This document shows, in pieces, positions 18,981-45,116 of a stretch of 64,000 bases of DNA. This DNA comes from a virus (lineage: Duplodnaviria; Heunggongvirae; Uroviricota; Caudoviricetes). Both the position numbers and the translations under genes were made by a program. Each line of letters starts with the position of its first letter. The first letter of the stretch is position 1. The notes under the pieces were generated by a model. The model saw nothing but the letters and a program-made list of their open reading frames with translations, made no database searches and was not told the origin of the DNA. Location: the IMG/VR virus record IMGVR_UViG_3300015608_002795, positions 1-64,000 of that record; one strand, given 5' to 3'.

Positions 18981-18992
18981 ACTCCCACAAAT

Positions 18993-19063: not shown

Positions 19064-19068
19064 CAAAT

Positions 19069-19140: not shown

Positions 19141-19152
19141 CAAAGATTAAAT

Positions 19153-19504: not shown

Positions 19505-19508
19505 ACAT

Positions 19509-19590
19509 GGATTGTTAGCAAAGCGGCAAAGTCGGGTGGCTGTAACCCACCTCCCTTCGGGGTCCGTAGGTTCGAGTCCTACACAATCCA
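19509..19590 (+). tRNA. tRNA-Tyr (GUA), class II
   Basis: acceptor GGATTGT/ACAATCC perfect; anticodon stem GGTGG/CCACC with loop CTGTAAC; T-arm GTAGG-TTCGAGT-CCTAC. Confidence 0.6.
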
Positions 19591-19595
19591 CAAAT

Positions 19596-19678
19596 TGGTA
19601 GATGGGCGAGTGGTTAATGCCGACAGTCTGTAAAACTGTTCTCCTTGGAGTTCGGGGGTTCAAATCCCTCTCTACCAA
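19596..19678 (+). tRNA. tRNA-Tyr (GUA), class II, T1:A72
   Basis: acceptor TGGTAGA/TCTACCA; anticodon stem ACAGT/ACTGT with loop CTGTAAA; T-arm GGGGG-TTCAAAT-CCCTC. Confidence 0.6.
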
Positions 19679-19744
19679 CCATACGTTGAAAAACAGCAGA
19701 TTTTTGGTCCGCAATGTTTAATATATAAAATAAAAATATTATAT

Positions 19745-23544: not shown

Positions 23545-23610
23545 GGGGGATTAGCTCAGTTGGCTAGAGCACCTGCCTTGGGTCATCGGTTCGAATCCGA
23601 TATCCTCCAC
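23545..23610 (+). tRNA. truncated tRNA-Pro(UGG)-like gene (3' half of anticodon stem and variable loop missing)
   Basis: GGGGGAT-TA-GCTC-AGTTGGCTA-GAGC-A-CCTGC-CTTGGGT then directly T-arm CATCGG-TTCGAAT-CCGAT and ATCCTCC; 63 nt instead of about 73. Confidence 0.4.
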
Positions 23611-24486
23611 TATGAAAGGAGAAATCATGCGGGACGCATAAACGTCACAGAGGAGTATAAATCTTTCTGTGACTCAAAAGGAATCAAATTCCAAATGGAT
23701 GATAATGTAAAATCCTATGATGATACAACACTATTTTGTCCAGCTGGAATGCAACAGTTTAAGTCTAAGTTTAAAGACTTAAGCTACAAAGGAACAATAT
23801 CAAATATTCAATCTTGTTTAAGGTTGAATGATATAGAAGAAATTGGTGACGGAACACATTTACTCTACTTTAACATGATTGGACTTTTTTCATTCAGAGA
23901 GTTGAGTCTATCAGAAACAATTGATTTTTGGATAGAATTTTTAAATAAAATAGGAATAATTCCTGACTATGTAACAATCCATCCTAATAAATTAAATTGG
24001 GGAGAGTGGTATAAAAAACATAATGTAGAAATAAGAATAGACGAGGAATGTAAATGGACAGATGGTGAAATAGGTGGTTACTGTACTGAGTTTTATAAGA
24101 ATGGTATTGAAATAGGAAATATTGTAAATACCATGGATAATTGTATAGATGTTGGATTTGGATTGGAAAGAATTGAAATGGTATTAAATGGTAAAGGAAA
24201 ATCTAAAGAGGAAACCCTTACACAAACAATACTTAAAATAATTGAAAGTGGATTTAAGCCAACATACAATAAACAAGGTTCTTTATTGCGTAGGTTATTG
24301 AGGATATGTTATTTACAAAATATTGAAATTAATCATCAATATTATTTGGATGAAATAAAAAGGCAGGAAAGGATATTAGAAAAGTGGAATAGGTTAAAGG
24401 ATAAGCATAAAGACAAGTCAAAAGATTGGTGGTGGAATACACATGGAATTGACATAAATCAAATAGAAGATGGAGACATTATATAA
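23560..24486 (+). CDS. alanyl-tRNA synthetase catalytic (aminoacylation) domain only, ~300 aa; start codon unclear
   Basis: 'TTLFCPAGMQQFK', 'RLNDIEEIGDGTHLLYFNMIGLFSF', 'DGEIGGYCTEFY' and 'IDVGFGLERIEMVL' align with AlaRS motifs; no editing or C-Ala domain; the only in-frame ATG lies inside the truncated tRNA. Confidence 0.65.
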   Translation: MARAPALGHRFESDILHYERRNHAGRINVTEEYKSFCDSKGIKFQMDDNVKSYDDTTLFCPAGMQQFKSKFKDLSYKGTISNIQSCLRLNDIEEIGDGTHLLYFNMIGLFSFRELSLSETIDFWIEFLNKIGIIPDYVTIHPNKLNWGEWYKKHNVEIRIDEECKWTDGEIGGYCTEFYKNGIEIGNIVNTMDNCIDVGFGLERIEMVLNGKGKSKEETLTQTILKIIESGFKPTYNKQGSLLRRLLRICYLQNIEINHQYYLDEIKRQERILEKWNRLKDKHKDKSKDWWWNTHGIDINQIEDGDII

Positions 24487-25190
24487 TATAAATAGTTTAG
24501 TTTTTTGGGAAGAAAAAGATATTAGAATAAGAAGATTTATTGAAGATTCGATCAAAGAAGAAATGAAATCTATTCTTCTTTCTCAAAATTCAGCGTGGAA
24601 ATTTTATCAAATTGAAGCACCTTGTTTGATTCCAATTGATTTAATCAATCCGAATTATACGAGTGAAGATATATGGATTCAAGAGGATAAGGAGTTAGTT
24701 TTAAAACCAGAGACTACACCAAGTTCTTACGTATATGCTCAACACCTACTTAATTCTAATAGATGCTTACCACCACTTGTGGTTTGGCAAACATCTAAAT
24801 CATTTAGAAGAGAGCAAGATCAGGTTCTTAAAAACATGAGACTGAAGGAGTTTTATCAACAAGAGTTTCAATGTATATATGCTTCTGATACTTTGAATGA
24901 CTATCAGGAAAAGGTATTAGAACCTTCTAATTGCTTTGCCAGCAAGAATTGTTGAAAGTGATAGATTACCCTCTTATAGTTTAAGAACGATGGATATTGA
25001 AGTTTTTAATGATGATAAATGGATGGAAGTTTGTTCAATATCGAAGAGGACAGATTTTCCACAAAAAGCTAGAATTCATGTAAAAGATAGAGTTATAGAA
25101 AAAGACTTATTAGTACTTGAAATAGCTTTAGGTTCGGATAGGTTATTGTATAATTATTTGGAGAGAACAAAAAAAAGTCGTATATTGTAA
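24470..25190 (+). pseudogene. class-II aaRS-like catalytic core interrupted by a frameshift (ORFs 24470-24955 and 24936-25190)
   Basis: 'LKPETTPSSY..LPPLVVWQTSKSFRREQDQVLKNMRLKEFYQQEF' resembles class-II motif 2; the downstream frame carries the motif-3-like 'EIALGSDRLLY'. Confidence 0.45.
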
Positions 25191-25844: not shown

Positions 25845-26564
25845 GTGATATTACAAGATATATCCAATTTAAAAGTCGTTGATGTAGTTGATGTTATTTG
25901 TGATAATTGTAATCTACAATTCACAAGAACTTTAAAAAATATTAAATCATTTCGCCCAAAGTGGGATGGTAAAGATATTTGTAGAAACTGCTCTTTTATT
26001 TTGTCTGCACATAAAAAGCCACAGTGTAATAAGGAATATTGGAAGGACTCAAATGTTAAATCTAAGCACGGATTATCTATTAAATCAAGTGATATTTATT
26101 ATGAGTCTATAAAAAATAGACCAAGTATATGTGGAAAAGACAATCCAATGTATGGTAAAAAAATGTCAGATACTACTAAAAGTAAAATGTCACTTGCTAG
26201 AACAGGTAAAATAGGTGAGAATGCTACGGCTTGGAAAGGTGGTAAAGTTTCTATCACCAGACTGGTAAAAGGATTTCAAAATAGAAATGGTTGGTATAAA
26301 AAAATATATGAGAGAGATGGATTTAAATGTGTTTATTGTGGTTCTAAAGATAAAATAGAAGCTCATCATAAGATTCCGATTAAAAATATCATAGATTTAC
26401 ACAAGCTCGAATTTAATAATAATGAAGATTTATATAAATTTTTAATATCCTTGGATATAATATTAGACTCTAATTTAGAAAATGGTATTACTTTATGCAG
26501 AGAGTGTCATAAAAAAGAACATATTAATTTTGGTAGTCGCTACCCAATTGTTAAACACCAGTAA
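25845..26564 (+). CDS. HNH homing endonuclease with NUMOD3 repeats
   Basis: 'CGKDNPMYGKKMSDTTKSKMSLARTGK' and 'CVYCGSKDKIEAHHKIP..NGITLCRECHKKEH'; start flanked by a perfect 15-bp inverted repeat. Confidence 0.75.
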   Translation: MILQDISNLKVVDVVDVICDNCNLQFTRTLKNIKSFRPKWDGKDICRNCSFILSAHKKPQCNKEYWKDSNVKSKHGLSIKSSDIYYESIKNRPSICGKDNPMYGKKMSDTTKSKMSLARTGKIGENATAWKGGKVSITRLVKGFQNRNGWYKKIYERDGFKCVYCGSKDKIEAHHKIPIKNIIDLHKLEFNNNEDLYKFLISLDIILDSNLENGITLCRECHKKEHINFGSRYPIVKHQ

Positions 26565-26658
26565 CTCATAACCGGGTTTTATTTATTAGGTTATAAGATT
26601 AAAAATTAGTCAACGTGAGATCGAAAACAAAAAAATAAACAACTGTACTATTATACAG

Positions 26659-27333
26659 GTTGGTGATTTCGGTATTGGGACTACTAGCAGAGATAATTGT
26701 GATAGAATACTTAAAGATTTAAATGATTTTTTAAATCTTTATGATATTACTATGTATGTTATTCGTGGAAATCATGATGATCCATTTTACTTTAAGGGAG
26801 ATCATATTTTTAGTAATCTTAAATTATTACCCGATTATACTCAAATAGAAGTTGATGGTTATAACATCCTTTTTGTTGGTGGTGCAGTTTCTGTAGATAG
26901 AAAAGTAAGCCTATCCAAAATGCAACTTGCAGCTAGTGTGGGAATAAAACAAAATCTATACTGGTTTGATGAGGCATTTGTACTAGATGAAAATAAGTTA
27001 AAGGACATCAAAAATGTTAATATGGTTGTAACACATACTGCTCCTGAATGGTGTTTTCCAGATAATCGAAGCGGATTCAATGATTTTGTTCTTGGTTTTT
27101 CTGATCGTGATGATAGATTGCTTGATGATTTAAAACATGAAAGAGCTATAGTAACTAAAATGTTTAAGATTCTTAAAGAGAATGGAAATAATATTATCAA
27201 ACATTATTATGGACATTTTCATAGAAGTGAAATAACTTTAAATGGATATACTGAACATATTTTACTTGGAGTTGGTGAATTTCAAATGGTTGACCAACCA
27301 ACTGAGCAAGACTATGAAGCATTATTTAACTAG
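26659..27333 (+). CDS. calcineurin-like metallophosphoesterase (no in-frame ATG before the GDxG motif)
   Basis: 'VGDFGIG', 'IRGNHDD', 'VTHTAP' and 'GHFH' motifs; the frame is open from 26590 but the first ATG is at 26752. Confidence 0.65.
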   Translation, partial: VGDFGIGTTSRDNCDRILKDLNDFLNLYDITMYVIRGNHDDPFYFKGDHIFSNLKLLPDYTQIEVDGYNILFVGGAVSVDRKVSLSKMQLAASVGIKQNLYWFDEAFVLDENKLKDIKNVNMVVTHTAPEWCFPDNRSGFNDFVLGFSDRDDRLLDDLKHERAIVTKMFKILKENGNNIIKHYYGHFHRSEITLNGYTEHILLGVGEFQMVDQPTEQDYEALFN

Positions 27334-27342: not shown

Positions 27343-29274
27343 ATGAAAAAATCTATTTTATTGCTTTGCCTTCTTATTGGGGGCAAAGCTTTTTCACAAG
27401 AGAAAAGTGATACAGGTCAAATTACTCAACTTGATCGAGTAATTGTTATGGGAATTAGAGGTGATAAAAAAACACCAATAACACAAAAGACAATTTCAAA
27501 GAAAGAAATCACACAATTTTATCAAGGGCAGGAAATTCCAATACTGCTAGATAAAACTCCATCTATAACTTCTCAAACCGATGGAGGTCATACACAAGGA
27601 TATACCTATTTTCGAATTAGGGGAATTGATCAAACAAGAGTTAATATGACACTAAACGGAGTTCCTCTAAACGAACCAGAAGATCAAGGTGTTTATACCT
27701 CTAACTATCCAGGGTTCGCTAATGTAATTCAATCGGTTCAAGTTCAAAGGGGTGTAGGAACATCAAGTAATGGTGTTGCCTCATATGGTGGGTCAATTAG
27801 CTTTTTGAGTCAAAGTGGTATTAATAGGGGTTCTGAAATTGATTTAGGGTATGGATCGTTTAATACTAAACGACTTAACTACTCAAATAGTACAGGATTA
27901 AGTAGAAAAAACCTCTCCTTATTTACCAATTTATCATTATACTCAAGTGATGGATATAGGTATAATTCAGGGGGAAAAGGATATTCATTATTTATGAGCG
28001 GAGGTTACTACAAAGATCTTAATATACTTAAGTTTACAGCATTTACTGGTATGTCAACTAATCAAATGGCATGGCTTGCTGTTTCTGAAGATGATATTAA
28101 ATACGATAGAAAAACTAATTATAATAAAGGTGATGCTGATGATAAATTCAACCAAACTTTTGCTCAATTACAATGGACTAAAATTGTAAATAAAAATTCT
28201 AAATTTTCTTCTAATTTATTCTATAATAGGCTTGATGGCTCTTATGATTTACACTTCATATCACCGGGAACAAGAACTTTATTTTTATCATCTAATTTTT
28301 ATGGACTAGTTAGTAATTATTTATATCATAAAAATAGTGTTAAAATTAATATTGGTGCCAGTATATCTGGATATAATAGGAATCACAGCAATGACACTCT
28401 AGGGTACACAAATACTGGATATAAAAGTGAAATTAATATCTTCTCGAAGTTAAATTATGATATTCAAAAAGTAACATTTTTTGGAGACATTCAATATCGT
28501 TATACAGATTTTAAATATCATGGTGATGTTAAGTTAGATAGACTCAAATGGAATTTCTTCAATCCGAAGGCAGGTATTATTTATACAAAAAATAAATTTT
28601 TAAACTATTATTTTTCAGTGGGGACTACAAAAAGAGAGCCAACAAGAACTAACTTATTTAGTGGTGGTGATAATTTAATATCATTAAATAAGATTGATCC
28701 GGAGAAAGTTATTGATTATGAATTGGGTGTGAATTTCAAAGATGATAAATTATCTATTCAGGGCAATTTGTATTATATGAATTTTCGTAATGAAATTACT
28801 CCAATTGGGCCAATGGGTGCAAACAGTCTTCCACTAATGATTAATGTCGATAAGAGTCTTAGAAGTGGTGTGGAAGTTGATTTTACATATATATTTAATG
28901 ATCTTACATTTTATACGAATCTCAATATATCACATAATAAGGTAAATAATAAAGGAAGTGAATTCAAGCCACTCTATACGCCTAATTTTGTTATGAATCA
29001 ATCCATTACATTTAACTATAATCAACTATCATTTGGCATCAATAGTAAGTGCCAAGGAAAATCTTATATTAGTTTTGATAACAACTATTCAATACCATCA
29101 TTTATCATATTTGGTTTCAATATTAGTTACGAACAAAAATCATACACCTTTGTACTACAAGGAAATAATTTAACAGATAATAAATATTATACAAGCGGGT
29201 ATGTTGATTCGAGAGTTAGATATTATACAAATGCATTATCAAACTTTTATCTCACTATTAAAAAGAAATTTTAA
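27343..29274 (+). CDS. TonB-dependent-receptor-like outer-membrane beta-barrel protein (signal peptide, C-terminal Phe)
   Basis: 'MKKSILLLCLLIGGKAFSQ' signal peptide; plug-like N-terminal region; alternating beta-strand pattern with Tyr/Asn/Gly richness; terminal '..KKKF'. Confidence 0.6.
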   Translation: MKKSILLLCLLIGGKAFSQEKSDTGQITQLDRVIVMGIRGDKKTPITQKTISKKEITQFYQGQEIPILLDKTPSITSQTDGGHTQGYTYFRIRGIDQTRVNMTLNGVPLNEPEDQGVYTSNYPGFANVIQSVQVQRGVGTSSNGVASYGGSISFLSQSGINRGSEIDLGYGSFNTKRLNYSNSTGLSRKNLSLFTNLSLYSSDGYRYNSGGKGYSLFMSGGYYKDLNILKFTAFTGMSTNQMAWLAVSEDDIKYDRKTNYNKGDADDKFNQTFAQLQWTKIVNKNSKFSSNLFYNRLDGSYDLHFISPGTRTLFLSSNFYGLVSNYLYHKNSVKINIGASISGYNRNHSNDTLGYTNTGYKSEINIFSKLNYDIQKVTFFGDIQYRYTDFKYHGDVKLDRLKWNFFNPKAGIIYTKNKFLNYYFSVGTTKREPTRTNLFSGGDNLISLNKIDPEKVIDYELGVNFKDDKLSIQGNLYYMNFRNEITPIGPMGANSLPLMINVDKSLRSGVEVDFTYIFNDLTFYTNLNISHNKVNNKGSEFKPLYTPNFVMNQSITFNYNQLSFGINSKCQGKSYISFDNNYSIPSFIIFGFNISYEQKSYTFVLQGNNLTDNKYYTSGYVDSRVRYYTNALSNFYLTIKKKF

Positions 29275-29389
29275 TGTCTTTAATAGAGGTTATAGCGGTT
29301 GCTTTTAGTTTTCTATCAATAGTATATACTGTTAATAAAAGTATTTTGAGTTTTATAAAATAATATATACTTAAAACATATTAAATTTA

Positions 29390-29905
29390 ATGAAACATCT
29401 ACAAAAATTTAACGAAATGGCGATTAGGATAAGAAAAAAAGAAGCAAAAAAGTCTAAGAAAACAGATCCACATTATATACTTAAATATAATTATATGATT
29501 GGTGATGCAAATGGAGATACTAGCGAAAAAGTAAAAATATCAAAGGATAATCCATTTCTTGAAAGATATTATAAACTTCTGAATTCACTAAAACCTACTC
29601 AAGGAACATGGGGGATTATATTAGACCGTGAAACGATATATAAAACATATGAAGAAAAACAAATAACCAAAGATGATTATTATTTTCTTATGAGAATAAT
29701 GTTTGAAGAATATGAAGAAGAGGATATGGAATCTCCTAATCCAAAAGAGCCAAAATTCAAAGTAGATAAGAAGGATGAGAAATATGCTAACGAATTCTTT
29801 GAAGGTGTGAGATCTGAAACAGAATATTCCTTTCTAGTCTTTGAAGGATTAAGTTTGAAGTATGTTGATGAAAATGGAAAGAAACATGATGCTGATGTTG
29901 ATTAA
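29390..29905 (+). CDS. hypothetical acidic protein (171 aa)
   Basis: intact ORF. Confidence 0.5.
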   Translation: MKHLQKFNEMAIRIRKKEAKKSKKTDPHYILKYNYMIGDANGDTSEKVKISKDNPFLERYYKLLNSLKPTQGTWGIILDRETIYKTYEEKQITKDDYYFLMRIMFEEYEEEDMESPNPKEPKFKVDKKDEKYANEFFEGVRSETEYSFLVFEGLSLKYVDENGKKHDADVD

Positions 29906-29908
29906 AAA

Positions 29909-30765: not shown

Positions 30766-30855
30766 GGCTCTGTGGCGAAATTTCGGTAGCACGCGTCAGG
30801 CTTAAACCCTGATGGACAGAAAAAGTCCGTGTCGGTTCGACCCCGACCAGAGTCA
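30766..30855 (+). tRNA. tRNA-Leu (UAA), class II
   Basis: acceptor GGCTCTG/CAGAGTC; anticodon stem TCAGG/CCTGA with loop CTTAAAC; long variable arm; T-arm GTCGG-TTCGACC-CCGAC. Confidence 0.7.
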
Positions 30856-30861
30856 CAAATT

Positions 30862-30941
30862 GGCCGAGTGGTGGAATGGTAGACACGCTAGTCTAAGAAG
30901 CTAGTACCTTCGGTGTGAGAGTTCGAGTCTCTCCTTGGTCA
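30862..30941 (+). tRNA. tRNA, Leu-like body with anticodon loop CTAAGAA (AAG?)
   Basis: acceptor GGCCGAG/CTTGGTC (2 GU); anticodon stem CTAGT/GCTAG; T-arm GAGAG-TTCGAGT-CTCTC. Confidence 0.45.
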
Positions 30942-30949
30942 CAAAAAAT

Positions 30950-31029
30950 GCTCCCGTAATCGAGTCTGCCTTCTAAGCAGTTAATCGTAACGGATATTGA
31001 AAATGAGGGTTCGAATCCCTCCGGGAGTT
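30950..31029 (+). tRNA. tRNA-like, D-arm apparently absent, UCU anticodon hairpin, long variable region
   Basis: acceptor GCTCCCG/CGGGAGT; anticodon stem TCTGC/GCAGT with loop CTTCTAA; T-arm GAGGG-TTCGAAT-CCCTC; only 8 nt between acceptor and anticodon stem. Confidence 0.35.
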
Positions 31030-31187
31030 CAAATATCGTCAAGATTCTATATCTATGAGAGTTTCTAGGACAATCATAAGATGAAATGGAAGAATTAAAA
31101 ACCACAGAATTTGATTTATAAATATTCTAGAAAGATTTATAAGTTGATGGTGGGTAGTAGGTTCGAATCCTACCTTGATGTCGAAAT

Positions 31188-31258
31188 GGGAATTTAGTTC
31201 AATGGAAGAACAAGGAGCTGTTAACTCTTAGACATCGGATCGTTACCGGTAATTCCCG
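31188..31258 (+). tRNA. tRNA-Asn (GUU)
   Basis: acceptor GGGAATT/AATTCCC perfect; D-stem GTTC/GAAC; anticodon stem AGGAG/CTCTT with loop CTGTTAA; T-loop ATCGTTA. Confidence 0.6.
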
Positions 31259-31289
31259 CAAATAACGAATACATAGTAGAAATACTATG

Positions 31290-31360
31290 TGGGATATACA
31301 TCAGTGGTAGATGGCCCTCGCGAAAGGGGGTAGGCAGTGGTTCGATTCCACTTATCCCAA
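31290..31360 (+). tRNA. tRNA, Phe(GAA)-like with GCGAAAG anticodon loop (C33)
   Basis: acceptor TGGGATA/TATCCCA perfect; D-stem CATC/GATG; T-arm AGTGG-TTCGATT-CCACT; preceded by a perfect 8-bp hairpin ACATAGTA-GAAA-TACTATGT. Confidence 0.45.
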
Positions 31361-31366
31361 CTAAAT

Positions 31367-31439
31367 TGTCAGTTAGCTCATTTGGTAGAGTACCTGTCTG
31401 ATACACAGGAGGTGCCGGGATCGTAACCCGGACTGACAA
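31367..31439 (+). tRNA. tRNA-Ile (GAU)
   Basis: acceptor TGTCAGT/ACTGACA perfect; anticodon stem CCTGT/ACAGG with loop CTGATAC; T-arm CCGGG-ATCGTAA-CCCGG. Confidence 0.65.
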
Positions 31440-31445
31440 CAAAAA

Positions 31446-31526
31446 CGGCGTGTAACCCTCAATCCTGATAAGATTGCTACGGGTAATTGGTAAGTGAAAA
31501 TGCTGGTTCGATTCCAGTCACGCCGA
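31446..31526 (+). tRNA. tRNA-like, D-arm apparently absent, GAU-type hairpin CAATC-CTGATAA-GATTG
   Basis: acceptor CGGCGTG/CACGCCG perfect; T-arm GCTGG-TTCGATT-CCAGT. Confidence 0.35.
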
Positions 31527-31532
31527 CAAATT

Positions 31533-31618
31533 GGGAGATTAGCTCAGCTGGTCAGAGCAAGATCCTGTTAAGATCGAGGCGTGAATAACGATTTCATAGG
31601 TTCGAATCCTATCTCCCG
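31533..31618 (+). tRNA. tRNA, class-II architecture, anticodon loop CTGTTAA (GUU), G73
   Basis: acceptor GGGAGAT/ATCTCCC perfect; D-arm GCTC-AGCTGGTCA-GAGC; 19-nt variable arm (CGT/ACG stem); T-arm ATAGG-TTCGAAT-CCTAT. Confidence 0.5.
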
Positions 31619-31661
31619 CTTATTGAGTGATTTTCGAAAATTATATTTTAATATATAATTT

Positions 31662-32315
31662 ATGGAATCAAAATATATTTGTGAAGAATGTGGTAATGAA
31701 TTTTTTCCATTAAAAAGGAATGTTCAATACTCAAAGCTGAAAGGATTAAATAGAATAAGATTTTGTTCTAAACAATGCTCCGGTAGAAATTCTAAAAAAG
31801 AAATATTACTAGAGTGTGCAAATTGTGGGAAACAAGTCTATAAAAAAAGAAAAGAGAGAAAAAAGAGTAAAAGTGGAAATATTTTTTGTGGTAAGAGCTG
31901 TTCAGCATCTTTTAATAACAGAAATAAGTCTACTGGAACAAGAAGAAGTAAGTTAGAGTTATGGATAGAGAAAGAATTGAAAAGTGAATATAAATTTGAA
32001 ATTATTTTTAATGGAAAAGAAATCATAAATAGTGAATTAGACATTTATATACCAAGCTTAAAATTAGCATTTGAGTTAAATGGTATATTTCACTATGAAC
32101 CTATTTATGGAGAAGAAAAACTTAAAAATATTAAAAATAATGATGATAGAAAATTTCAAGCCTGCTTAGAGAAAAATATAGAACTTTGCATAATAGATAC
32201 GTCAGGTTCTAAAAACTTTAAGTCAGAAAGAGACAAAAAATATTTTAACATCATTAGTAATATAATAAATGCACGGATGGTTCGAGTGGTTGAAGACACT
32301 AGTCTGCAAAACTAG
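31662..32315 (+). CDS. DUF559 / very-short-patch-repair-like endonuclease with N-terminal zinc ribbons (homing-endonuclease-like)
   Basis: 'CEECGNEF..CSKQCSG' and 'CANCGKQV..CGKSC' Zn ribbons; C-terminal 'IYIPSLKLAFELNG..EKNIELCIID' PD-(D/E)xK-like core; 3' end overlaps the next tRNA by about 45 nt. Confidence 0.5.
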   Translation: MESKYICEECGNEFFPLKRNVQYSKLKGLNRIRFCSKQCSGRNSKKEILLECANCGKQVYKKRKERKKSKSGNIFCGKSCSASFNNRNKSTGTRRSKLELWIEKELKSEYKFEIIFNGKEIINSELDIYIPSLKLAFELNGIFHYEPIYGEEKLKNIKNNDDRKFQACLEKNIELCIIDTSGSKNFKSERDKKYFNIISNIINARMVRVVEDTSLQN

Positions 32316-32357
32316 AAGCCGTAAGGTTCATCGTGAGTTCAAATCTCACTCCGTGCT
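32271..32357 (+). tRNA. tRNA with GCA (Cys) anticodon and 17-nt variable arm
   Basis: acceptor GCACGGA/TCCGTGC perfect; anticodon stem CTAGT/ACTAG with loop CTGCAAA; T-arm GTGAG-TTCAAAT-CTCAC. Confidence 0.55.
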
Positions 32358-32362
32358 CATAA

Positions 32363-32448
32363 TGTCTCGTAGCTCAGTGGTTTAAGAGCACCGCCCTTAC
32401 AAGGCGGAGGCGAATAGGATACCGTCAGTTCGATTCTGACCGAGACAA
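32363..32448 (+). tRNA. tRNA-Val (UAC) with 16-nt variable region
   Basis: acceptor TGTCTCG/CGAGACA perfect; anticodon stem CCGCC/GGCGG with loop CTTACAA; T-arm GTCAG-TTCGATT-CTGAC. Confidence 0.6.
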
Positions 32449-32456
32449 CAAAAAAT

Positions 32457-32541
32457 GCCTGGTTCGCATAGTGGACGATTGCACCTGCCTTGTAAGCAGG
32501 ATCTTAAAAAGGCGACGGGGGTTCGAATCCCTCACCAGGCT
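32457..32541 (+). tRNA. tRNA-Thr (UGU) with 16-nt variable region
   Basis: acceptor GCCTGGT/ACCAGGC perfect; anticodon stem CCTGC/GCAGG with loop CTTGTAA; T-arm GGGGG-TTCGAAT-CCCTC. Confidence 0.6.
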
Positions 32542-32585
32542 CAAAGTAGGAAGGCTCATATTTTTAATATATAAAAATAAAAACT

Positions 32586-33254
32586 ATGAGAATTTCAAAA
32601 GAAATATTAATTGAACTAGTTAATAGAGGACTATCAAATAAAAAAATATCAGAGGAATTAAATGTTTCTAGATCAACTATTGTTAGAGAAAAGTCTAAAT
32701 ATAATTTGAATTCAAAGTATTATGAAATTAAAAGTGAAATTAAAAAATGTGAGTTTTGTAATGAAGAATTTAAATCAATAAAGAGTGATAATAGAAAATT
32801 TTGTTCAAGGGAATGCTCTATTAATAGTCAGAAAAAGTCAAATGAATTAAAAATATGTGAGTTTTGTAATGAAGAATTTATAATAAGTGGGAGAAACATA
32901 TCAAAAAATAGAAAATTTTGCTCAACTGATTGTCATAAAAAGTATGTAGAAGATTCAAGATTTAAAAAATTAGAATATAACGGTGGAGTAAGTAACAAGA
33001 CAGCTAGGTTGTACCTAATAAAAAAATTTGGTGAAAAATGTATGAATTGTGGATGGGATAAGAAGAATACAGTTAGTGGAAAATGTCCGATAGAACTAGA
33101 ACATATAGACGGTAACTCAGAAAATAACAACTTAGATAATTTAAAATTACTTTGTCCAAATTGTCACTCATTAACACCAACATATAAATCTTTGAATAAG
33201 GGAAAAGGAAGACATAAAAGAAGAGAAAGGTATAAAGAAGGTAGAAGTTATTAA
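32586..33254 (+). CDS. HNH homing endonuclease (HTH + Cys-rich + HNH), paralogue of 22819-23463
   Basis: 'LEHIDGNSENNNLDNLKLLCPNCHSLTPTYKSLNKGKGR'. Confidence 0.8.
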   Translation: MRISKEILIELVNRGLSNKKISEELNVSRSTIVREKSKYNLNSKYYEIKSEIKKCEFCNEEFKSIKSDNRKFCSRECSINSQKKSNELKICEFCNEEFIISGRNISKNRKFCSTDCHKKYVEDSRFKKLEYNGGVSNKTARLYLIKKFGEKCMNCGWDKKNTVSGKCPIELEHIDGNSENNNLDNLKLLCPNCHSLTPTYKSLNKGKGRHKRRERYKEGRSY

Positions 33255-33255
33255 T

Positions 33256-33328
33256 TGGGGATTAGCTCAAATGGTAGAGCGTTTCTGTGACATGGAAAAG
33301 GTAGTGGGATCGTTACCCACATCCCCAA
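33256..33328 (+). tRNA. tRNA-Val (GAC)?
   Basis: acceptor TGGGGAT/ATCCCCA perfect; anticodon stem TTTCT/GGAAA with loop GTGACAT; T-arm GTGGG-ATCGTTA-CCCAC. Confidence 0.5.
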
Positions 33329-33333
33329 CAAAG

Positions 33334-33378
33334 TAGTGATGGTGATGATGTAACCCCATCATCCGGGTTCATCACTAT
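33334..33378 (+). ncRNA. tRNA-minihelix-like hairpin (7-bp terminal stem AGTGATG/CATCACT enclosing a 7-bp hairpin)
   Basis: AGTGATG-G-TGATGATG-TAACCC-CATCATC-CGGGTT-CATCACT; sits between two tRNA genes. Confidence 0.3.
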
Positions 33379-33451
33379 GTGGGAGTAGCTCAGTTGGTAA
33401 GAGCACCTGCATCGAGGCAGGCGGTCGGTGGTTCAAGTCCATCCTCCCATA
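33379..33451 (+). tRNA. tRNA with 6-nt anticodon loop ATCGAG (Arg UCG-like, one nt short)
   Basis: acceptor GTGGGAG/CTCCCAT; canonical D-arm GCTC-AGTTGGTAA-GAGC; anticodon stem CCTGC/GCAGG perfect but loop only 6 nt; T-arm GGTGG-TTCAAGT-CCATC. Confidence 0.45.
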
Positions 33452-33495
33452 CAAATCTTTAGTCTGATCAACTATTGACTGGATGGTTCGAAACA
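33452..33495 (+). ncRNA. tRNA top-half minihelix (acceptor-like stem TGATCAA/TTGATTA + T-arm GGATG-GTTCGAAA-CATCC)
   Basis: about 43-nt element with a T-loop consensus and a 7-bp terminal stem but no D or anticodon arm. Confidence 0.3.
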
Positions 33496-33496
33496 T

Positions 33497-33569
33497 CCGA
33501 TTGATTATGGTGTAAAGGGCACACCCGACGAGGGAGGTTTAAGGTTCGATTCCTTATTAATCAACAAAA
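33497..33569 (+). tRNA. tRNA-like, irregular anticodon region
   Basis: acceptor TGATTAT/TTAATCA (6 of 7); T-arm TAAGG-TTCGATT-CCTTA; D-stem GTG/CAC. Confidence 0.3.
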
Positions 33570-33570
33570 T

Positions 33571-33642
33571 GCCGTAGTCGTATAATTGGTATTACGCAAC
33601 GTTGGTATCGTTGTAACAGCGGATCGTAACCGCTCTATGGCT
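33571..33642 (+). tRNA. tRNA-Thr (GGU)
   Basis: acceptor GCCGTAG/CTATGGC; anticodon stem CAACG/CGTTG with loop TTGGTAT; T-arm AGCGG-ATCGTAA-CCGCT. Confidence 0.65.
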
Positions 33643-33760
33643 CTATAAGCATGGTAGTAGCCCTTATTTGAATGAAAATTTATCTTGACCGCAAGCAAAA
33701 TAGATAAAGAAGTAAGTAAAAAATAAAAAATCTACCCATCACTTGCGGGTGATGTTTTTT

Positions 33761-33850
33761 GCCCAGATGTTGGAATTTAGGGAGACATCACCGTCTTAGA
33801 AGCGGTGGCGAAATAATAGTAGCGTACGGGTTCGATCCCCGTTCTGGGCA
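33761..33850 (+). tRNA. tRNA-Leu (UAG), class II
   Basis: acceptor GCCCAGA/TCTGGGC perfect; anticodon stem ACCGT/GCGGT with loop CTTAGAA; 19-nt variable arm; T-arm ACGGG-TTCGATC-CCCGT; preceded by the terminator hairpin at 33737-33760. Confidence 0.65.
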
Positions 33851-33858
33851 CGAATAGT

Positions 33859-33992
33859 TTGTATTATGGCGAAGCTGGGATTGATTTCGGGTAAACTCCA
33901 AAATCTTCTACTCAAGAACGAAAACCGCCATCCTGATGTACGAGGTAGATAGTATAAGGGATCATAGGTTCGAGTCCTATTAATACAAACAT
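33859..33992 (+). tRNA. tRNA-like with about 60-nt internal insertion (acceptor TGTATTA .. T-arm ATAGG-TTCGAGT-CCTAT .. TAATACA)
   Basis: perfect 7-bp terminal complementarity and canonical T-arm, but 134 nt end to end. Confidence 0.25.
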
Positions 33993-33994
33993 TA

Positions 33995-34070
33995 TGGCAT
34001 GGCTTAGAGGAAAAGAGCGGTCTCTCATAAGGACTGTCAAGTGGGTTCGAACCCCACGCATGCTACTAAT
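33995..34070 (+). tRNA. tRNA (CAU anticodon hairpin GGTCT-CTCATAA-GGACT); acceptor pairing imperfect
   Basis: T-arm GTGGG-TTCGAAC-CCCAC; D-stem GCT/AGC. Confidence 0.35.
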
Positions 34071-34130
34071 TCGGATTGGAAATTACCACTTCGGACTTTT
34101 AATATATATATAATAAAAATTAAAAAAGAA

Positions 34131-34733
34131 ATGTGTAATTATGGATGGAGTAACGGATTAGACTCCGCAAATGACAATAGAATTAGAAGTAAATATAAAT
34201 ATATAGCACTTTGTGAAAATTCAAATATTCACAGAGGAGTTTTAAGAAATAAAATAATTAAAGAGGGATTAATATTATATAAATGTTCAGAATGTGGAAT
34301 TACCAATGAATGGAATGGGAAAAAAATAATTTTAGAACTGGATCATATAAGCGGTGATAGTACTGATAATAGAATTGAAAATTTAAGATTTTTGTGTCCA
34401 AATTGTCATTCTCAAACACCAACATTTAAAGGTAGAAATAAACCGAAGTCAGAAAAAGAAATAAAAATAAGAAAAGAAAAGAAAAAAAAGGAGAGGAGAA
34501 AAAAAATAAAAAATAAAAAATGCAATAATTGTAGTAAAATGTGTAGCTTTAATGCGGATGTTTGTAGGGACTGTTACAAAATATTACAAAGAAAATATGA
34601 TAGACCAGATGATCAAATATTATTAAGACAGGTTAAAGAATTTGGATATACAAAAACATCAAAAATATATGGAGTTTCTGATAAAACTATTAAAAAATGG
34701 TTTGAGGATTTATCGGATACACCGAAAGATTAA
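34131..34733 (+). CDS. HNH homing endonuclease (track ORF 34041 trimmed to the ATG downstream of the tRNA)
   Basis: 'CSECGITNEWNGKKIILELDHISGDSTDNRIENLRFLCPNCHSQTPTF'; C-terminal HTH-like 'YGVSDKTIKKWF'. Confidence 0.75.
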   Translation: MCNYGWSNGLDSANDNRIRSKYKYIALCENSNIHRGVLRNKIIKEGLILYKCSECGITNEWNGKKIILELDHISGDSTDNRIENLRFLCPNCHSQTPTFKGRNKPKSEKEIKIRKEKKKKERRKKIKNKKCNNCSKMCSFNADVCRDCYKILQRKYDRPDDQILLRQVKEFGYTKTSKIYGVSDKTIKKWFEDLSDTPKD

Positions 34734-34736
34734 AAA

Positions 34737-34819
34737 GGCCCAATGGCGTAACGGTAGCCGCGGCAGGCTCAAACCCTGCTGACCTAAAAGTCGTGTAGGT
34801 TCGACTCCTACTTGGGTCA
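34737..34819 (+). tRNA. tRNA-Leu (CAA), class II
   Basis: acceptor GGCCCAA/TTGGGTC; anticodon stem GCAGG/CCTGC with loop CTCAAAC; long variable arm; T-arm GTAGG-TTCGACT-CCTAC. Confidence 0.7.
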
Positions 34820-35046
34820 CTATGAAAATACACGGTATTGATAAGTCTTTATATAAATTTAGTGCTTTAAAAGATAATAAAAAAGTGGCTACTATAAAAG
34901 TTGTAGCCTATACTAAATTTCAAGCTTATTATGAGTGTGTTAAATATTTTCCAGAACAATGGATACACCTACGAACATATTCGATTTGCGGAAGATGATG
35001 AAGAGTGTGGTCCAATTTTAACAAAAAATGATATTAAAAGAAAGAT

Positions 35047-40861: not shown

Positions 40862-43135
40862 TTATAAATTTTCCTTATTAATTTCACCTCTTATTATACT
40901 AGTATCAGCCTGATTTAATGGATAATTAGGTAGTGTTAGCCTCATATTTGCATTATCTGCGAATATTAAGTACCTATAATCCTCTCCAATTATTGCTTGA
41001 TTTAATAATTTACTATGTTCTGACTCAGGAACAATATCATTAAACAATCTAATATTCGTAATCTTCATATCAGACCCTAATATTGTAGCATTTGTATTTT
41101 CCAATTCAAAATTAACTATTGTTAAATCATTCTCTTGTGAATATACTTTCTTTAGTATGGTAGAATCTATTGAAGAAGCATCTGATTCAACATCAGTATT
41201 TCTTTTATAAATCCATTGGTTTATTTTTCGTTGTCTTTGATCAACATTCACAAGATATGAGTACCACGTTCCTTCCTGTAAAGCGTTAGCATTTCCAGTA
41301 ACTCCTATAGCAAAATTATAACTATCTGTATTTAATGTAAATGATATCACATCAGATTCTAGATTTATTTTAAATCCTAAACTATTTGTATCATCATAAT
41401 ATTTTATGAAATTATAACTATCATTAACGGTATAGTTATTTATATTAAACCATAACATGAAGCTAAAATTATCAGACACTTTGAAATAATCTCTGAAGTT
41501 TCTATATGTAACACCAGTAGATTGATAAGTAATACTATTTAAATCATAATTGGACTTACTAATAATGTTAGTAGAGTTTTCAATTAACTCTTTATCAATA
41601 TCAACAAGAATTTCAGTTCTTAGAACATCTCTTGTAAGTGGTCTAAATTGTTCCTTGTTAGCGACATCTTTCTTATCTAGAGAATTTTCAAGTCCAAATA
41701 GTTCATCAATAGTAGAATTCTTAGTAAGTTCTTTAACTTTATCAGTGATTGTCTGATTAACACCAATAATATTGGATTTTTGTACATATTTTTTAAGCAT
41801 AACCTTATAGTATAAAGCAGAGTTGTTAAAATTTCTAAATTGTTGAGCATGCTCTACTTGAAACATTCTGTTTAAATTACAAAACCACAAAAAATCTTCT
41901 TTACTTGGTCTTTTTTCAACCCCAAATGCCTTTTTAAACATTTCTTTTGGTATGTGAACTTCAAAACTATCAAATAAAGAAAGGTCAAATTGATTCATTG
42001 CTATTTGATTATCAGGAAAATTATTTCCATCAACCGCTATTTTCATCATCTCACTACACACATAATTGTATAATTGATATTCGTGGAAGGTAAAATCTAT
42101 TCCTTTCTTATCAGGATCGGTTAGAAAATAAACTACATCGTGTCCAAACATTTGGGTCGAATCATTACTTAATTGATTAAGTAAATTTACTGCCTGTGTT
42201 TGTTGATATGGTTGAAATAATTTCGATATATCATCAGGGGTTAATGGTTTTAATGGACTAGCATCACAACTAGATCCATCTAAAAGACCGCTTGTAGAGT
42301 TAGAATCACTAGCTGTTCCACCAACAATGCCTAACATTAGACAACTACAATTTTCTCTGACACCATATAAATTTGTTTTTTGTGCATCAAGTGTAACGTT
42401 TTGGAAGTCACCAATTAAATTAATATCAAATATTTTAACAATTGATGATCCACTATATTCTATTAAATATTCAATTTGAAAAAATCTTACTGGATTTATT
42501 CTAACAGTTGATATATTTTCTTTAGTTAATGGTTCCCATTGTGATACAGTTCTACCATAATCCTGTGAGAATCTATACTTTATATTAGCATTGGTAATAT
42601 CACCACTTGATAGAATTTCTATATCATCAATTTTAAAGACCTTATAAATATAAGGTGGCTTAATAACAATAGATGTATTTGTAGTATTTAAGGTGATAAT
42701 ACTCTCACCATCGGTTATACTTCTAGCAACTGCCCCATTTAATGTATAATCGAGAAGTTTAATAGTTCCAATGTCAGATGTCCCTGCTCTTTCCCATTTT
42801 ATATCGATATACATCGGATCTTTTGGATCAACTGTTTGAAAATTAAGTATGGTACTATTCAATTCAGACCATCCAGTCCATGTTGTATTATTCCTTGATA
42901 TTCTATAATATGTATTTAGGTATCTAGAATTGCTTGTTCCAGAAGAATTATAATCAAAGGTTTTGAATTTCTCAATATCTGATAAGTTTAATATTGATTG
43001 TATATAGGTATCACCAATACCCACAAACTGCGGTTCTTCTCCTGTTGCAAATGTTTCAGTTATTGAAATAACTCCAGTAAGTGTGTTTTTATCTACAGAA
43101 TACATAATATGATATATATTAAAAATGTATTTCAC
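40862..43135 (-). CDS. large hypothetical protein (757 aa), probable virion structural or receptor-binding protein
   Basis: long Asn/Ser/Thr/Tyr-rich beta-rich sequence typical of tail fibre/lectin-like proteins; promoter-like TATATTTG just upstream on the minus side. Confidence 0.55.
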   Translation of the reverse strand: MKYIFNIYHIMYSVDKNTLTGVISITETFATGEEPQFVGIGDTYIQSILNLSDIEKFKTFDYNSSGTSNSRYLNTYYRISRNNTTWTGWSELNSTILNFQTVDPKDPMYIDIKWERAGTSDIGTIKLLDYTLNGAVARSITDGESIITLNTTNTSIVIKPPYIYKVFKIDDIEILSSGDITNANIKYRFSQDYGRTVSQWEPLTKENISTVRINPVRFFQIEYLIEYSGSSIVKIFDINLIGDFQNVTLDAQKTNLYGVRENCSCLMLGIVGGTASDSNSTSGLLDGSSCDASPLKPLTPDDISKLFQPYQQTQAVNLLNQLSNDSTQMFGHDVVYFLTDPDKKGIDFTFHEYQLYNYVCSEMMKIAVDGNNFPDNQIAMNQFDLSLFDSFEVHIPKEMFKKAFGVEKRPSKEDFLWFCNLNRMFQVEHAQQFRNFNNSALYYKVMLKKYVQKSNIIGVNQTITDKVKELTKNSTIDELFGLENSLDKKDVANKEQFRPLTRDVLRTEILVDIDKELIENSTNIISKSNYDLNSITYQSTGVTYRNFRDYFKVSDNFSFMLWFNINNYTVNDSYNFIKYYDDTNSLGFKINLESDVISFTLNTDSYNFAIGVTGNANALQEGTWYSYLVNVDQRQRKINQWIYKRNTDVESDASSIDSTILKKVYSQENDLTIVNFELENTNATILGSDMKITNIRLFNDIVPESEHSKLLNQAIIGEDYRYLIFADNANMRLTLPNYPLNQADTSIIRGEINKENL

Positions 43136-43435: not shown

Positions 43436-44641
43436 ATGAACATAAAAGAAACATTTTTAAGATTGACAAGTAAGACTTATCCACATGGAAGTGAGTCTGA
43501 ACTGTACGATCTATTAATCGACGGATTGGAATTTGACGAGTTTGGTAACAGATACATACAAGTTGGCGAAAGCACCTGTATGTTTACTTCTCACCTGGAT
43601 ACAGCCACATCTGCTAAGACAGATGTTAATCATGTTTTTGAAGGTAATATTATTAAGACAGATGGTACATCAATTTTAGGCGCAGATGATAAGGCAGGTG
43701 TTACTATCATGTTTTATATGATTGAGAATAAAGTGCCTGGTCTATATTATTTCTTCTTAGGTGAAGAGGTTGGTTGTATCGGATCTAAGAAACTATCTAC
43801 TAAATTAAATACTACAAAAGAATATCCATTTGATAAGATCAATAAGGTTATTTCATTTGATAGGCGTGGATATGACTCTGTTATCACCTATCAAGCAAGT
43901 AGCAGATGCTGTTCTGATGAATTCGCTCAAGCTTTAGCAGATGACCTAAATAAGTGTGGTGTAGCTTTTAATTATAAGCCAGATCCAACAGGTATCTATA
44001 CGGACTCTGCTCAATTTACACGAATTTATCCAGAATGTACCAACATTTCAGTTGGATATAAGTCTGAGCACACTTTCTCTGAAAATCAAGATATTGATCA
44101 CTTAGAAGAATTAGGCAAAGCTTGTTTAAACGTTGAATGGGAAAAACTGCCTGTAACAAGAGATCCAAGCAAGTATGAATACAGAAGTTATAGTTATGGA
44201 TACGGTGATTGGGAGTCTGAATGGGAAGATTATTATGGATATGGATCTTATGGAAATAGATCTAGAATGATTTCCAACGCAGCATCCGCATCATCATATA
44301 CACCGCCTGAAAAAGATGAAACTTTACACTTCTATGATGAAGAATACCAATTTGTATCTTCTCTTAAGAAGAATAAGCTTAGTGATAGATTAATTTCTGT
44401 AGATTTTGCACCTGAAAGAATTGATGATGAAAAATCATCCATCATTGAAATACTTGAATCACTTGAAGTAGATTATAAGGCGGTCAAATGGGATGGATTC
44501 AAACTTGTGGTCAAACACAATGAGCCAGCAGATCATACTACAGAATGCTTGAGAGCTGATCTAACTGAATTCTTACCAAATCTTGATTTCTGGAAAAAAG
44601 AAATTGAAGATTATAAAGGAGTTAGTGATAAGATTTATTAA
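43436..44641 (+). CDS. M20/M28/M42-family metallopeptidase-like protein
   Basis: 'HLDTATSAKTDV' and 'GADDKAGVTIM' metal-ligand motifs. Confidence 0.55.
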   Translation: MNIKETFLRLTSKTYPHGSESELYDLLIDGLEFDEFGNRYIQVGESTCMFTSHLDTATSAKTDVNHVFEGNIIKTDGTSILGADDKAGVTIMFYMIENKVPGLYYFFLGEEVGCIGSKKLSTKLNTTKEYPFDKINKVISFDRRGYDSVITYQASSRCCSDEFAQALADDLNKCGVAFNYKPDPTGIYTDSAQFTRIYPECTNISVGYKSEHTFSENQDIDHLEELGKACLNVEWEKLPVTRDPSKYEYRSYSYGYGDWESEWEDYYGYGSYGNRSRMISNAASASSYTPPEKDETLHFYDEEYQFVSSLKKNKLSDRLISVDFAPERIDDEKSSIIEILESLEVDYKAVKWDGFKLVVKHNEPADHTTECLRADLTEFLPNLDFWKKEIEDYKGVSDKIY

Positions 44642-44651
44642 AAATATTAAA

Positions 44652-45116
44652 ATGAAAACATTAGCAATATACGCTGGATCATTTAATCCATTTCACATTG
44701 GTCATTTGAATATTTTGGAAAAGGCAGAAAAAATTTTTGGAAAAGGAAATGTACTAGTTGCCATGGGTGTAAATCCAGCTAAATTGTCGTTAGATGAAGT
44801 AAGAAAAGGAGCCTTAGAAAAAATGTCTCTTTTAGAGAATAAGATTGGAAGAAAGGTTGAAGCCTATTTTTCCTTTCTACATGAGTTTATTGAACAAAAA
44901 GAGAAAGAAGGATACGATGTTGTATTAGTTAGAGGTCTAAGAAATGGTGATGATCTCGCTTATGAAAATAATCAATTGAGTTTCATACATGACTTTAAAC
45001 CTGAGGTTAAATCAGTGTTTATTATGTGTGATAAGCAATATGAACACGTTTCATCTTCTTCTATTCGTCAATTGGAATCTTTTATTCCAGGTAGTGGGTC
45101 CAAATATTTAGTATGA
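44652..45116 (+). CDS. nucleotidyltransferase of the NMNAT/PPAT (cytidylyltransferase-like) family
   Basis: 'IYAGSFNPFHIGHLNIL' is the (H/T)xGH adenylyltransferase signature (GxFxPxHxGH). Confidence 0.65.
   Translation: MKTLAIYAGSFNPFHIGHLNILEKAEKIFGKGNVLVAMGVNPAKLSLDEVRKGALEKMSLLENKIGRKVEAYFSFLHEFIEQKEKEGYDVVLVRGLRNGDDLAYENNQLSFIHDFKPEVKSVFIMCDKQYEHVSSSSIRQLESFIPGSGSKYLV

Follow-up and report, generated by a model that had tools for sequence, protein, structure and literature searches.

The viral record IMGVR_UViG_3300015608_002795 of IMG/VR belongs to the Caudoviricetes, and here we report an analysis of its positions 1 to 64,000 (the window, which is the whole stretch of 64,000 nucleotides studied), centred on a single gene at positions 27343 to 29274 of the plus strand. 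The product of this gene is a true TonB-dependent transporter (TBDT) with a plug, a barrel and a TonB box. The transporter family to which it belongs is probably the outer-membrane leg of an uptake route for precursors of nicotinamide adenine dinucleotide (NAD), a role assigned because the family shows conserved linkage, in phages and in bacteria, with other NAD genes and above all with pnuC and nadR, which encode an inner-membrane nicotinamide riboside carrier and a kinase/adenylyltransferase, respectively. In the window both partners have been removed by a deletion, and the transporter gene appears to be the orphan of a captured salvage operon. The gene and the parts of its product are as follows.

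27343..29274, plus strand: intact gene for a TonB-dependent outer-membrane transporter; a single open reading frame (ORF) with an ATG start, 643 amino acids (aa) plus stop.
27343..27396, plus strand: codons of the signal peptide, residues 1-18, with predicted cleavage between AFS and Q; by inspection of the sequence.
27430..27459, plus strand: TonB box, residues 30-39, LDRVIVMGIR; from an alignment of 26 family sequences.
27466..27792, plus strand: Plug domain, residues 42-150; Pfam PF07715.
27820..29271, plus strand: beta-barrel, about residues 160-643, ending in KKKF; from Pfam PF00593, DSSP and the fold match.

An initial annotation, made from the sequence alone, had described this ORF as a TonB-dependent receptor in a phage, with a cleavable signal peptide, a plug, a large beta-barrel and a C-terminal phenylalanine, and had proposed a search for a TonB box near residues 30-40; this description holds throughout. 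Exactly one ORF of 643 aa occupies the interval. The Pfam models Plug (PF07715, residues 42-150, E 1.1e-12) and TonB_dep_Rec_b-barrel (PF00593, residues 224-610, E 1.4e-20) score 48.8 and 75 bits against gathering cut-offs of 23.9 and 27, respectively. The N-terminus, MKKSILLLCLLIGGKAFS followed by QEK, was judged by inspection to be a signal of the signal-peptidase-I type with glutamine at position +1, a residue found there in most members of the 26-sequence alignment and one that fits the 'Q-rule' for signal peptides of Bacteroidota. The TonB box sits at residues 30-39, where the consensus L-(E/D)-x-V-x-V-x-G-(V/I)-R-A is kept across the 26 aligned members, and the chain ends in YLTIKKKF, the last residue being phenylalanine.

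The same alignment served as input for AlphaFold2, which returned a model with a mean pLDDT of 85.5 and a pTM of 0.85. Low confidence is confined to the signal peptide and the TonB-box segment (residues 11-37, disordered and preceding the plug), with a low-confidence helix at residues 2-15, and the plug domain is confidently modelled. Strands assigned by DSSP span residues 163 to 642, and the elements are consistent with 22 strands. The top Foldseek matches in the PDB are all TBDTs, including PqqU (9c4o, TM 0.84), FecA (TM 0.80) and YncD; a sequence-profile search ranks the PDB relatives in the same order with PqqU/YncD best (E 8e-27), so that PqqU/YncD outrank the iron transporters in both kinds of search. 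The Colicin I receptor is also among the profile and fold matches, and PhuR is the best PDB match for a single-sequence search. Since plug and barrel are confirmed, the alternative that the protein is a virion fibre or an adhesin is excluded. The Pfam scan found the Plug and barrel domains only, with no N-terminal extension domain, and among the NCBIfam models there was no match to the SusC/RagA signature and none to the siderophore-receptor models; the sole NCBIfam match is to the heme/transferrin subfamily TIGR01786, at 45.5 bits against a cut-off of 323.75 and mainly over the plug. Ligand transport energised by TonB is predicted for the protein.

The transporter is under purifying selection and shows no sign of decay. 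Its ORF carries no frameshift and no premature stop, and all 78 positions at which the other 25 aligned family members reach 90% conservation or more are unchanged. Compared with the transporter of locus L020, its closest relative, dN/dS (the ratio of nonsynonymous to synonymous divergence) is 0.13 (dN 0.12, dS 0.91), a value averaged over the whole divergence, with dS near saturation. On balance we lean slightly towards an orphan that is still functional.

The phage context in which the initial annotation had placed the gene is confirmed, and the protein relatives identify the window as megaphage DNA. Its G+C content is about 30% and it holds 41 tRNA genes in arrays. A 757-aa ORF at 40862..43135 on the minus strand is 55% identical to a protein of LR756502 (642 kb) and 51% identical to one of LR745206 (635 kb), and is weakly similar to the 'neck protein' of Tenacibaculum jumbo phages. 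Full-length homologues of the transporter itself occur in LR745206 (49% identity), LR756502 (43%), LR756501 (35%) and all Lak megaphages (27-28%). In public data its homologues number about 840 representatives at E below 1e-30. Deposited phages yielded no megablast match to 20 kb of the window; the kinship of the window to known phages is visible only in proteins. The hosts are probably Bacteroidota, as indicated by the glutamine at +1 and by the bacterial relatives of the transporter. Phage-borne receptors of this type had been called uncommon, which is borne out: in the BFVD library of viral structures we found just one other TBDT, an 805-aa marine 'SusC' from Mar_Mega_1 with 13% identity to the window protein.

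The evidence for a role in NAD salvage comes from gene neighbourhoods, beginning with those of other phages. Genes for pnuC and nadR lie within about 4 kb downstream of the transporter in 17 of the 17 distinct non-Lak phage relatives examined. The order transporter-pnuC-nadR was seen in 11 IMG/VR loci (contigs up to 483 kb); on a 378-kb NCBI contig the transporter homologue is directly followed by a PnuC-family gene and a NadR-type gene, and both genes are likewise downstream of the transporter in LR745206, LR756502 and LR756501. Intact cassettes are present in L020, L021/L022, L023 and L104, whose transporters are 79%, 60%, 57% and 48% identical to that of the window. The PnuC of L020 passes the NCBIfam equivalog model TIGR01528 (93.9 bits, cut-off 42). 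Its NadR combines a cytidylyltransferase with an AAA_28 kinase domain, lacks any domain of the helix-turn-helix (HTH) type, and reaches 210 bits against TIGR01526, the model for the NadR adenylyltransferase of nicotinamide mononucleotide (NMN), which is under the 341-bit cut-off.

In Lak-A1 and Lak-B4 the two genes are 5-7 kb downstream of the transporter on the same strand. The Lak-A1 locus (L018, MK250016.1 23515-32467) has the pair about 5 kb from the transporter in the order nadR then pnuC, and a DUF4407 protein and ORFs of unknown function are encoded in between. A neighbour-joining tree of 98 transporters, which carries no support values and therefore allows no inference on the number of captures, puts the window in one main phage clade and leaves LR756502, LR756501, two IMG/VR loci and Lak outside it; as an outlier in this tree the Lak transporter may represent an independent capture.

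Bacterial members of the family were collected with one genome per species, giving 80 loci with 35-51% identity to the window protein, nearly all of them from Bacteroidota. Cultured carriers include Zobellia, Mucilaginibacter, Flavobacterium, Flammeovirga, Niastella, Chitinophaga and Chryseobacterium, and a metagenome-assembled genome (MAG) of Prevotella is a further carrier; members of the bacterial unit are 35-43% identical to the window transporter. Hidden Markov models (HMMs) made from the phage proteins detected pnuC directly downstream in 61 and nadR in 71 of the 80 loci. Neighbours were also clustered without supervision in 79 loci (L025-L103), L024 being excluded because it is probably a mis-binned phage contig. 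Three families were near-universal, the transporter (78 of 79) and, downstream of it on the same strand, nadR (70 of 79) and pnuC (60 of 79), followed in the Pfam annotation by NAMPT/NadV directly upstream (15), ADP-ribosylglycohydrolase (13), NrtR (13), Prs (11) and a NUDIX protein (8). The NrtR regulon counts nadV, prs and nrtR among its classical salvage genes (PMC2330246). Genes for iron, heme or glycans do not recur among the neighbours in these 79 loci, and no periplasmic nucleotidase is conserved in their operon neighbourhoods. Upstream of the transporter in four phage and five bacterial loci, neither a riboswitch nor any other Rfam element was found apart from tRNAs.

Twelve bacterial loci have the transporter and nadR without an adjacent pnuC, and members of the unit can therefore cooperate with genes encoded elsewhere. 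The likely hosts, Bacteroidota, often have their own pnuC and nadR. Two contigs of 'bacterial MAGs' in the collection look like mis-binned megaphage DNA, probably so in the case of L024 (JAJFLM010000305.1), which bears the label Deltaproteobacteria, shares 51% identity with the window protein and groups within the phage clade; the other, L026 (JAVTWD010000086.1), is a contig of 651,911 bp that clusters near LR756502 and has a short pnuC of the phage type.

In the window the unit breaks off immediately behind the transporter, at the following two features.

29274..29363, plus strand: 5' remnant of pnuC, 29 codons plus stop, MSLIEVIAVAFSFLSIVYTVNKSILSFIK before the stop; from tblastn and the PnuC HMM.
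29342..29352, no strand: deletion junction; from blastn against L104.

The ATG of the pnuC stub overlaps the TAA stop of the transporter (TAATG). By tblastn, 28 aa of the stub align with the N-terminus of the L020 PnuC at 79% identity, and the PnuC HMM, run over all six frames of the window, matches nothing but the stub (HMM positions 1-27, E 6e-4). The DNA alignment of the window with L020, about 88% identical, ends abruptly after about 29352. By blastn, positions 2901-3110 of L104 match 29150-29352 of the window and positions 9452-10023 match 29342-29907; the window is therefore without an equivalent of L104 3111-9451 (6.3 kb), a segment that contains the remainder of pnuC, five small ORFs (one for a DUF7275 protein), nadR, a HAD_SAK_2 protein and further ORFs. 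A deletion of 6.3 kb thus took out everything from pnuC, bar 29 codons, through nadR. Beyond the stub, neither tblastn nor the six-frame HMM scan found pnuC or nadR within the 64-kb window. The window accordingly holds a remnant of the transporter-pnuC-nadR unit, in which an orthologous transporter is retained and the downstream pnuC and nadR are gone.

Two candidates for the missing genes were rejected. A weak match of the NadR HMM at 44583..45116 belongs to a CoaD-like cytidylyltransferase, and P0271, which is 88% identical to the L020 NadR, is not a second contig of the window phage: it comes from sample ERZ4208449, the window from ENA ERZ27283032, and it has a full cassette of its own. Its locus served to define the deletion in the window.

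The genes on either side of the transporter and the stub are the following.

26611..27333, plus strand: metallophosphoesterase gene; PHROG 1649, E 4e-10; a conserved upstream neighbour in the closest relatives.
29390..29905, plus strand: ORF of 171 aa of unknown function, which adjoins the transporter owing to the deletion.

The metallophosphoesterase is 81% identical to its homologues in L020 and L104. Homology reaches back to about 26611 and includes the metal-binding motif GDFG, and the first ATG, GTG or TTG codon is found only at 26752, past GDFG; the gene may be disrupted at its 5' end or may use an unusual start. An ORF resembling NUMOD3 homing endonucleases (25845..26564) is located directly upstream of it. 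The junction between metallophosphoesterase and transporter had been described as lacking a terminator, and it is indeed a gap of 9 nucleotides with no predicted terminator. A terminator-like hairpin at 27363..27389 (an 11-bp stem followed by TTTTT) is situated within the signal-peptide codons, 20 nucleotides into the transporter ORF; L020 has it too, whereas L021, L023 and L104 do not, and it was rejected as a terminator, being probably a by-product of coding shared with the closest relative only. On the downstream side, the separate transcription unit previously assumed there gives way to the overlapping pnuC stub and the deletion scar. No model of Pfam, PHROG or NCBIfam matches the 171-aa ORF. 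Its homologue in L104 is the ORF at 9533-10021 (85% DNA identity), so it is a native flank, and the idea that it is an inserted element was discarded.

Compared with its surroundings the transporter is strikingly variable. The L104 transporter (1100-3028) is 48-49% identical to that of the window or of L020 (827-2758); its plug is about 80% identical, its barrel segments are 28-58% identical, and its nearest known relative stands at 52%. The flanks of the cassette are far more alike: the metallophosphoesterases of the window, L020 and L104 are about 81% identical, the NadR and PnuC proteins of L020 and L104 are 88% and 75% identical, and the DNA downstream is 85-98% identical between the window and L104. 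Such divergence amid similar flanks means that the transporter has either been swapped between phages or evolved much faster than its neighbours, and it points to an exchange of alleles or to rapid change in the parts exposed at the surface.

We propose that a megaphage lineage captured the transporter-pnuC-nadR unit from its Bacteroidota hosts. During infection the transporter would leave the cytoplasm through the host Sec system, be placed in the outer membrane by the host BAM machinery and be energised through its TonB box by the host TonB-ExbBD complex. It would then draw an NAD precursor from the surroundings into the periplasm, presumably nicotinamide riboside and possibly NMN or NAD, from which PnuC and NadR would rebuild NAD+. 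The rebuilt NAD+ may support phage replication and counter host defences that deplete NAD. The result would be the pathway known as NARP3 extended across the envelope, with an outer-membrane gate added. As pnuC and nadR are deleted here, the window transporter would feed the PnuC and NadR of the host or phage copies elsewhere in the genome, or else it is newly redundant. More broadly, and only tentatively, we suggest an unrecognised class of TBDTs for vitamin B3 and NAD precursors, encoded in Bacteroidota as nrtR/nadV-TBDT-pnuC-nadR and captured whole by megaphages as NARP3 plus a gate; the window would then be a natural partial knock-out, and the divergence of the barrel would reflect an arms race at the cell surface.

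Several points weigh against the assignment to NAD-precursor uptake. The substrate rests wholly on gene neighbourhood, and an adjacent pnuC is missing from about a quarter of the bacterial loci. Nicotinamide riboside, at 255 Da, could cross porins, so that the need for a TBDT is not obvious, and the actual ligand may be NMN, NAD or a different pyridine compound. Because pnuC and nadR are gone from the 64-kb window, the pathway is incomplete unless genes of the host or distant genes of the phage complete it. The upstream metallophosphoesterase is possibly disrupted and expression of the transporter would have to be assumed, and a barrel would have to be usefully assembled within one infection cycle. 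Lastly, given the near-saturated dS and the averaging of dN/dS, a recent relaxation of selection after the deletion would stay hidden.

One rival reading is a decaying relic, a transporter useful only together with the phage pnuC and nadR and without a role since their recent loss, perhaps as a deletion variant within a population. The window has the sole partnerless copy among about 18 distinct phage loci examined, the stub is still 79% (protein) and about 88% (DNA) identical to L020, which suggests a young event, and the metallophosphoesterase upstream has no canonical start before its first catalytic motif. We nevertheless think a relic unlikely: the ORF is free of frameshifts and stops, all 78 conserved positions are intact, dN/dS has the low value given above, and the 12 bacterial loci with transporter and nadR lacking an adjacent pnuC, like the pnuC and nadR commonly present in Bacteroidota hosts, indicate that the partners may be encoded elsewhere. 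Persistence of the gene without transport partners could also be read as surface remodelling or exclusion independent of transport, in which the protein acts as a decoy, displaces or masks the receptors of competing phages or bacteriocins, or alters vesicles or adsorption. TBDTs are classic receptors for phages and colicins (FhuA for T5, the Colicin I receptor), and the transporter is the most divergent gene of the cassette (48% between window and L104, against 75-98% for the flanks) with the variation mostly outside the plug, as expected of a surface protein under conflict. A decoy, however, would have no need of the TonB box, the plug and the conserved positions, all of which are kept, and transport accounts for the close operon linkage seen in both phages and bacteria; we regard exclusion as improbable, and the pairing with pnuC and nadR points to uptake of NAD precursors rather than to the blocking of receptors used by competing phages, as the initial annotation had also considered.

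An iron-related function, in which a siderophore or heme receptor boosts the iron supply during infection, has the weight of existing labels behind it: the Joint Genome Institute names homologues 'iron complex outermembrane receptor protein', the Lak preprint puts the Lak homologue beside heme oxygenase among enigmatic genes, TIGR01786 is the only NCBIfam match and PhuR the best single-sequence match in the PDB. Yet that receptor label is a generic name of the KEGG type, the TIGR01786 score is far below its cut-off and falls mainly on the plug, PqqU/YncD stand above the iron transporters in profile and fold searches, and the recurrent neighbours in the 79 bacterial loci are NAD genes, with no iron-related gene among them. 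With curated models below cut-off and NAD genes as recurrent neighbours, identity as a siderophore or heme TBDT was rejected, and iron acquisition as such seems to us very improbable. The probable Bacteroidota hosts depend on SusC/D systems; a Sus-like nutrient uptake was suggested in the initial annotation, and an importer of carbohydrates that raises sugar uptake is the published interpretation of the 'SusC' of Mar_Mega_1 (PMC9723777). SusC proteins are about 1000 aa long; our protein is far shorter at 643 aa, shows no extension domain and no SusC/RagA match in NCBIfam, and has no SusD-like neighbour among the ORFs scanned in the window or in the relatives examined; the BFVD entry from Mar_Mega_1 is another TBDT, of 805 aa. 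As length, domains, NCBIfam and neighbours (metallophosphoesterase and pnuC stub) all fail to agree with it, a SusC/RagA-type identity was rejected, and a role of this kind is hardly credible. Of the original interpretation, the TonB-dependent receptor in a phage thus stands, and the Sus-like role and the downstream transcription unit do not.

A close parallel among known systems is the pair PnuC-NadR (Bas30_87 and Bas30_86) of Enterobacteriaceae phages, named NARP3, which was shown experimentally to import nicotinamide riboside (PMC13464706, Sci Adv 2026) and which restores NAD+ against the Sir2-HerA defence in phages of E. coli (PMC13464706). That paper has no mention of TonB or the outer membrane (PMC13464706), and a survey of gut jumbo phages, which counted pnuC in 68 of 174 NAD-encoding phages, is equally silent on any outer-membrane component (PMC11662467). 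Relatives of the window phage carry adjacent pnuC and HTH-less nadR genes of these two families, with the same presumed purpose. NARP3 differs in being composed of two genes, whereas the unit of megaphages and Bacteroidota begins with a TBDT; of this unit the window keeps the extra outer-membrane component only, both NARP3 genes being lost, the PnuC-type gene by truncation and the HTH-less NadR gene entirely.

PqqU/YncD of E. coli (PDB 9c4o, 6v81) resembles the window protein in its compact size, is its best profile and fold match, and scavenges a small cofactor, pyrroloquinoline quinone (PQQ), rather than an iron chelate. It differs in phylum and gene context, the sequence identity is 16%, and nothing points to PQQ as the ligand here. 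The thiamine system of Bacteroides thetaiotaomicron consists of a TBDT, PnuT and a kinase; its gene logic, a TBDT followed by a facilitator of the Pnu family and a trapping kinase, is akin to that proposed here, although the vitamin and the trapping enzyme are others. Haemophilus takes up NAD and nicotinamide riboside through the porin OmpP2, the periplasmic NadN and e(P4), PnuC and NadR (see also PMC4081464). The inner-membrane and cytoplasmic steps (PnuC, NadR) are shared with the phage unit; Haemophilus relies on a porin and periplasmic nucleotidases, whereas the outer-membrane step of the megaphages would be active and TonB-dependent.

Genes for TonB-dependent receptors in megaphages are already known from the literature. 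A gene labelled 'iron complex outer membrane receptor' was noted in Lak phages (bioRxiv 10.1101/356790), and a 'SusC' was described in Mar_Mega_1, said to be present also in LR745206, with carbohydrate uptake as the proposed role (PMC9723777). The LR745206 gene (49%) and the Lak gene (27-28%) are full-length homologues of the window protein. The published readings, iron and carbohydrate, differ from ours in making no connection to pnuC or nadR, and the Mar_Mega_1 protein belongs to another TBDT subfamily. Our search of open-access papers turned up none connecting a TonB-dependent transporter to nicotinamide riboside, or to pnuC or nadR in phages. The assignment of the family to NAD salvage in Bacteroidota and megaphages, the three-gene phage pathway and the deletion variant in the window appear to be new.

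The tRNA arrays of the window are located at 2653-2916, 5508-6647, 18521-19681, 30766-34820 and 45717-47056 and contain runs of near-duplicates, with six consecutive tRNA-Gln, three tRNA-Glu and three tRNA-Tyr genes; ARAGORN also reported two tRNA-like genes with two-base anticodons (33379-33452 and 46157-46230). Amid the arrays and synthetase fragments are ORFs of the homing-endonuclease type at 1067-1858, 2943-3704, 12644-13366, 25845-26564 and 34041-34733, the types present in the window being GIY-YIG+NUMOD3, LAGLIDADG, NUMOD1, NUMOD3 and HNH. ORFs with aminoacyl-tRNA-synthetase domains were found at 1764-2531, 23560-24486, 24470-24955 and 37589-38758; they comprise a class I W/Y type (255 aa), an AlaRS type (308 aa), a class II core (161 aa) and a weak class I match. 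Being far below the size of the cellular enzymes, they may be split, fragmentary or pared down. Three RNA ligases and a ClpB-like ATPase are also encoded.

A 630-aa protein of the SPFH/Band-7 type (10096-11988; Pfam E 2e-25; PHROG 200, 'lipoprotein') may be another membrane-associated phage protein. A cluster of sugar-modifying genes (54475-56195 and 60714-63998) encodes a GT1, a methyltransferase, a GT2, a GT2+GT6 fusion and a DegT-type aminotransferase, the last of which runs beyond the end of the window; it hints at phage-directed modification of surface polysaccharide or of DNA. At 49697-50260 and 56158-56922 the window encodes a NUDIX hydrolase and a PARG-like macrodomain protein of the microbial type, members of two families that act on ADP-ribose derivatives; with these genes present, the phage retains genes related to NAD and ADP-ribose despite the loss of pnuC and nadR. 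Macro-domain genes were also seen near the transporter cassette in L001 and L023.

Depletion of NAD+ is a major anti-phage strategy (Thoeris, Sir2-HerA, DSR), and the pathways by which phages rebuild NAD+ (NARP1, NARP2, NARP3) are a current topic. The NARPs described so far work within the cell or at the inner membrane, and an outer-membrane importer encoded by a phage would supply the missing step in hosts with two membranes. If our assignment is right, phages re-engineer the host surface for nutrient capture, this would be the first TonB-dependent transporter of a phage to be given a substrate and a role, and two published megaphage annotations, the iron receptor and the SusC, need correction. 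The window on its own has the more modest content of an intact orphan gene beside a deletion scar; should the assignment hold, the transporter kept here under selective constraint would demonstrate a benefit from the outer-membrane step by itself, for instance through supply of the PnuC and NadR of the host. For the Bacteroidota, the analysis predicts a substrate class for a common transporter family that has had no name.

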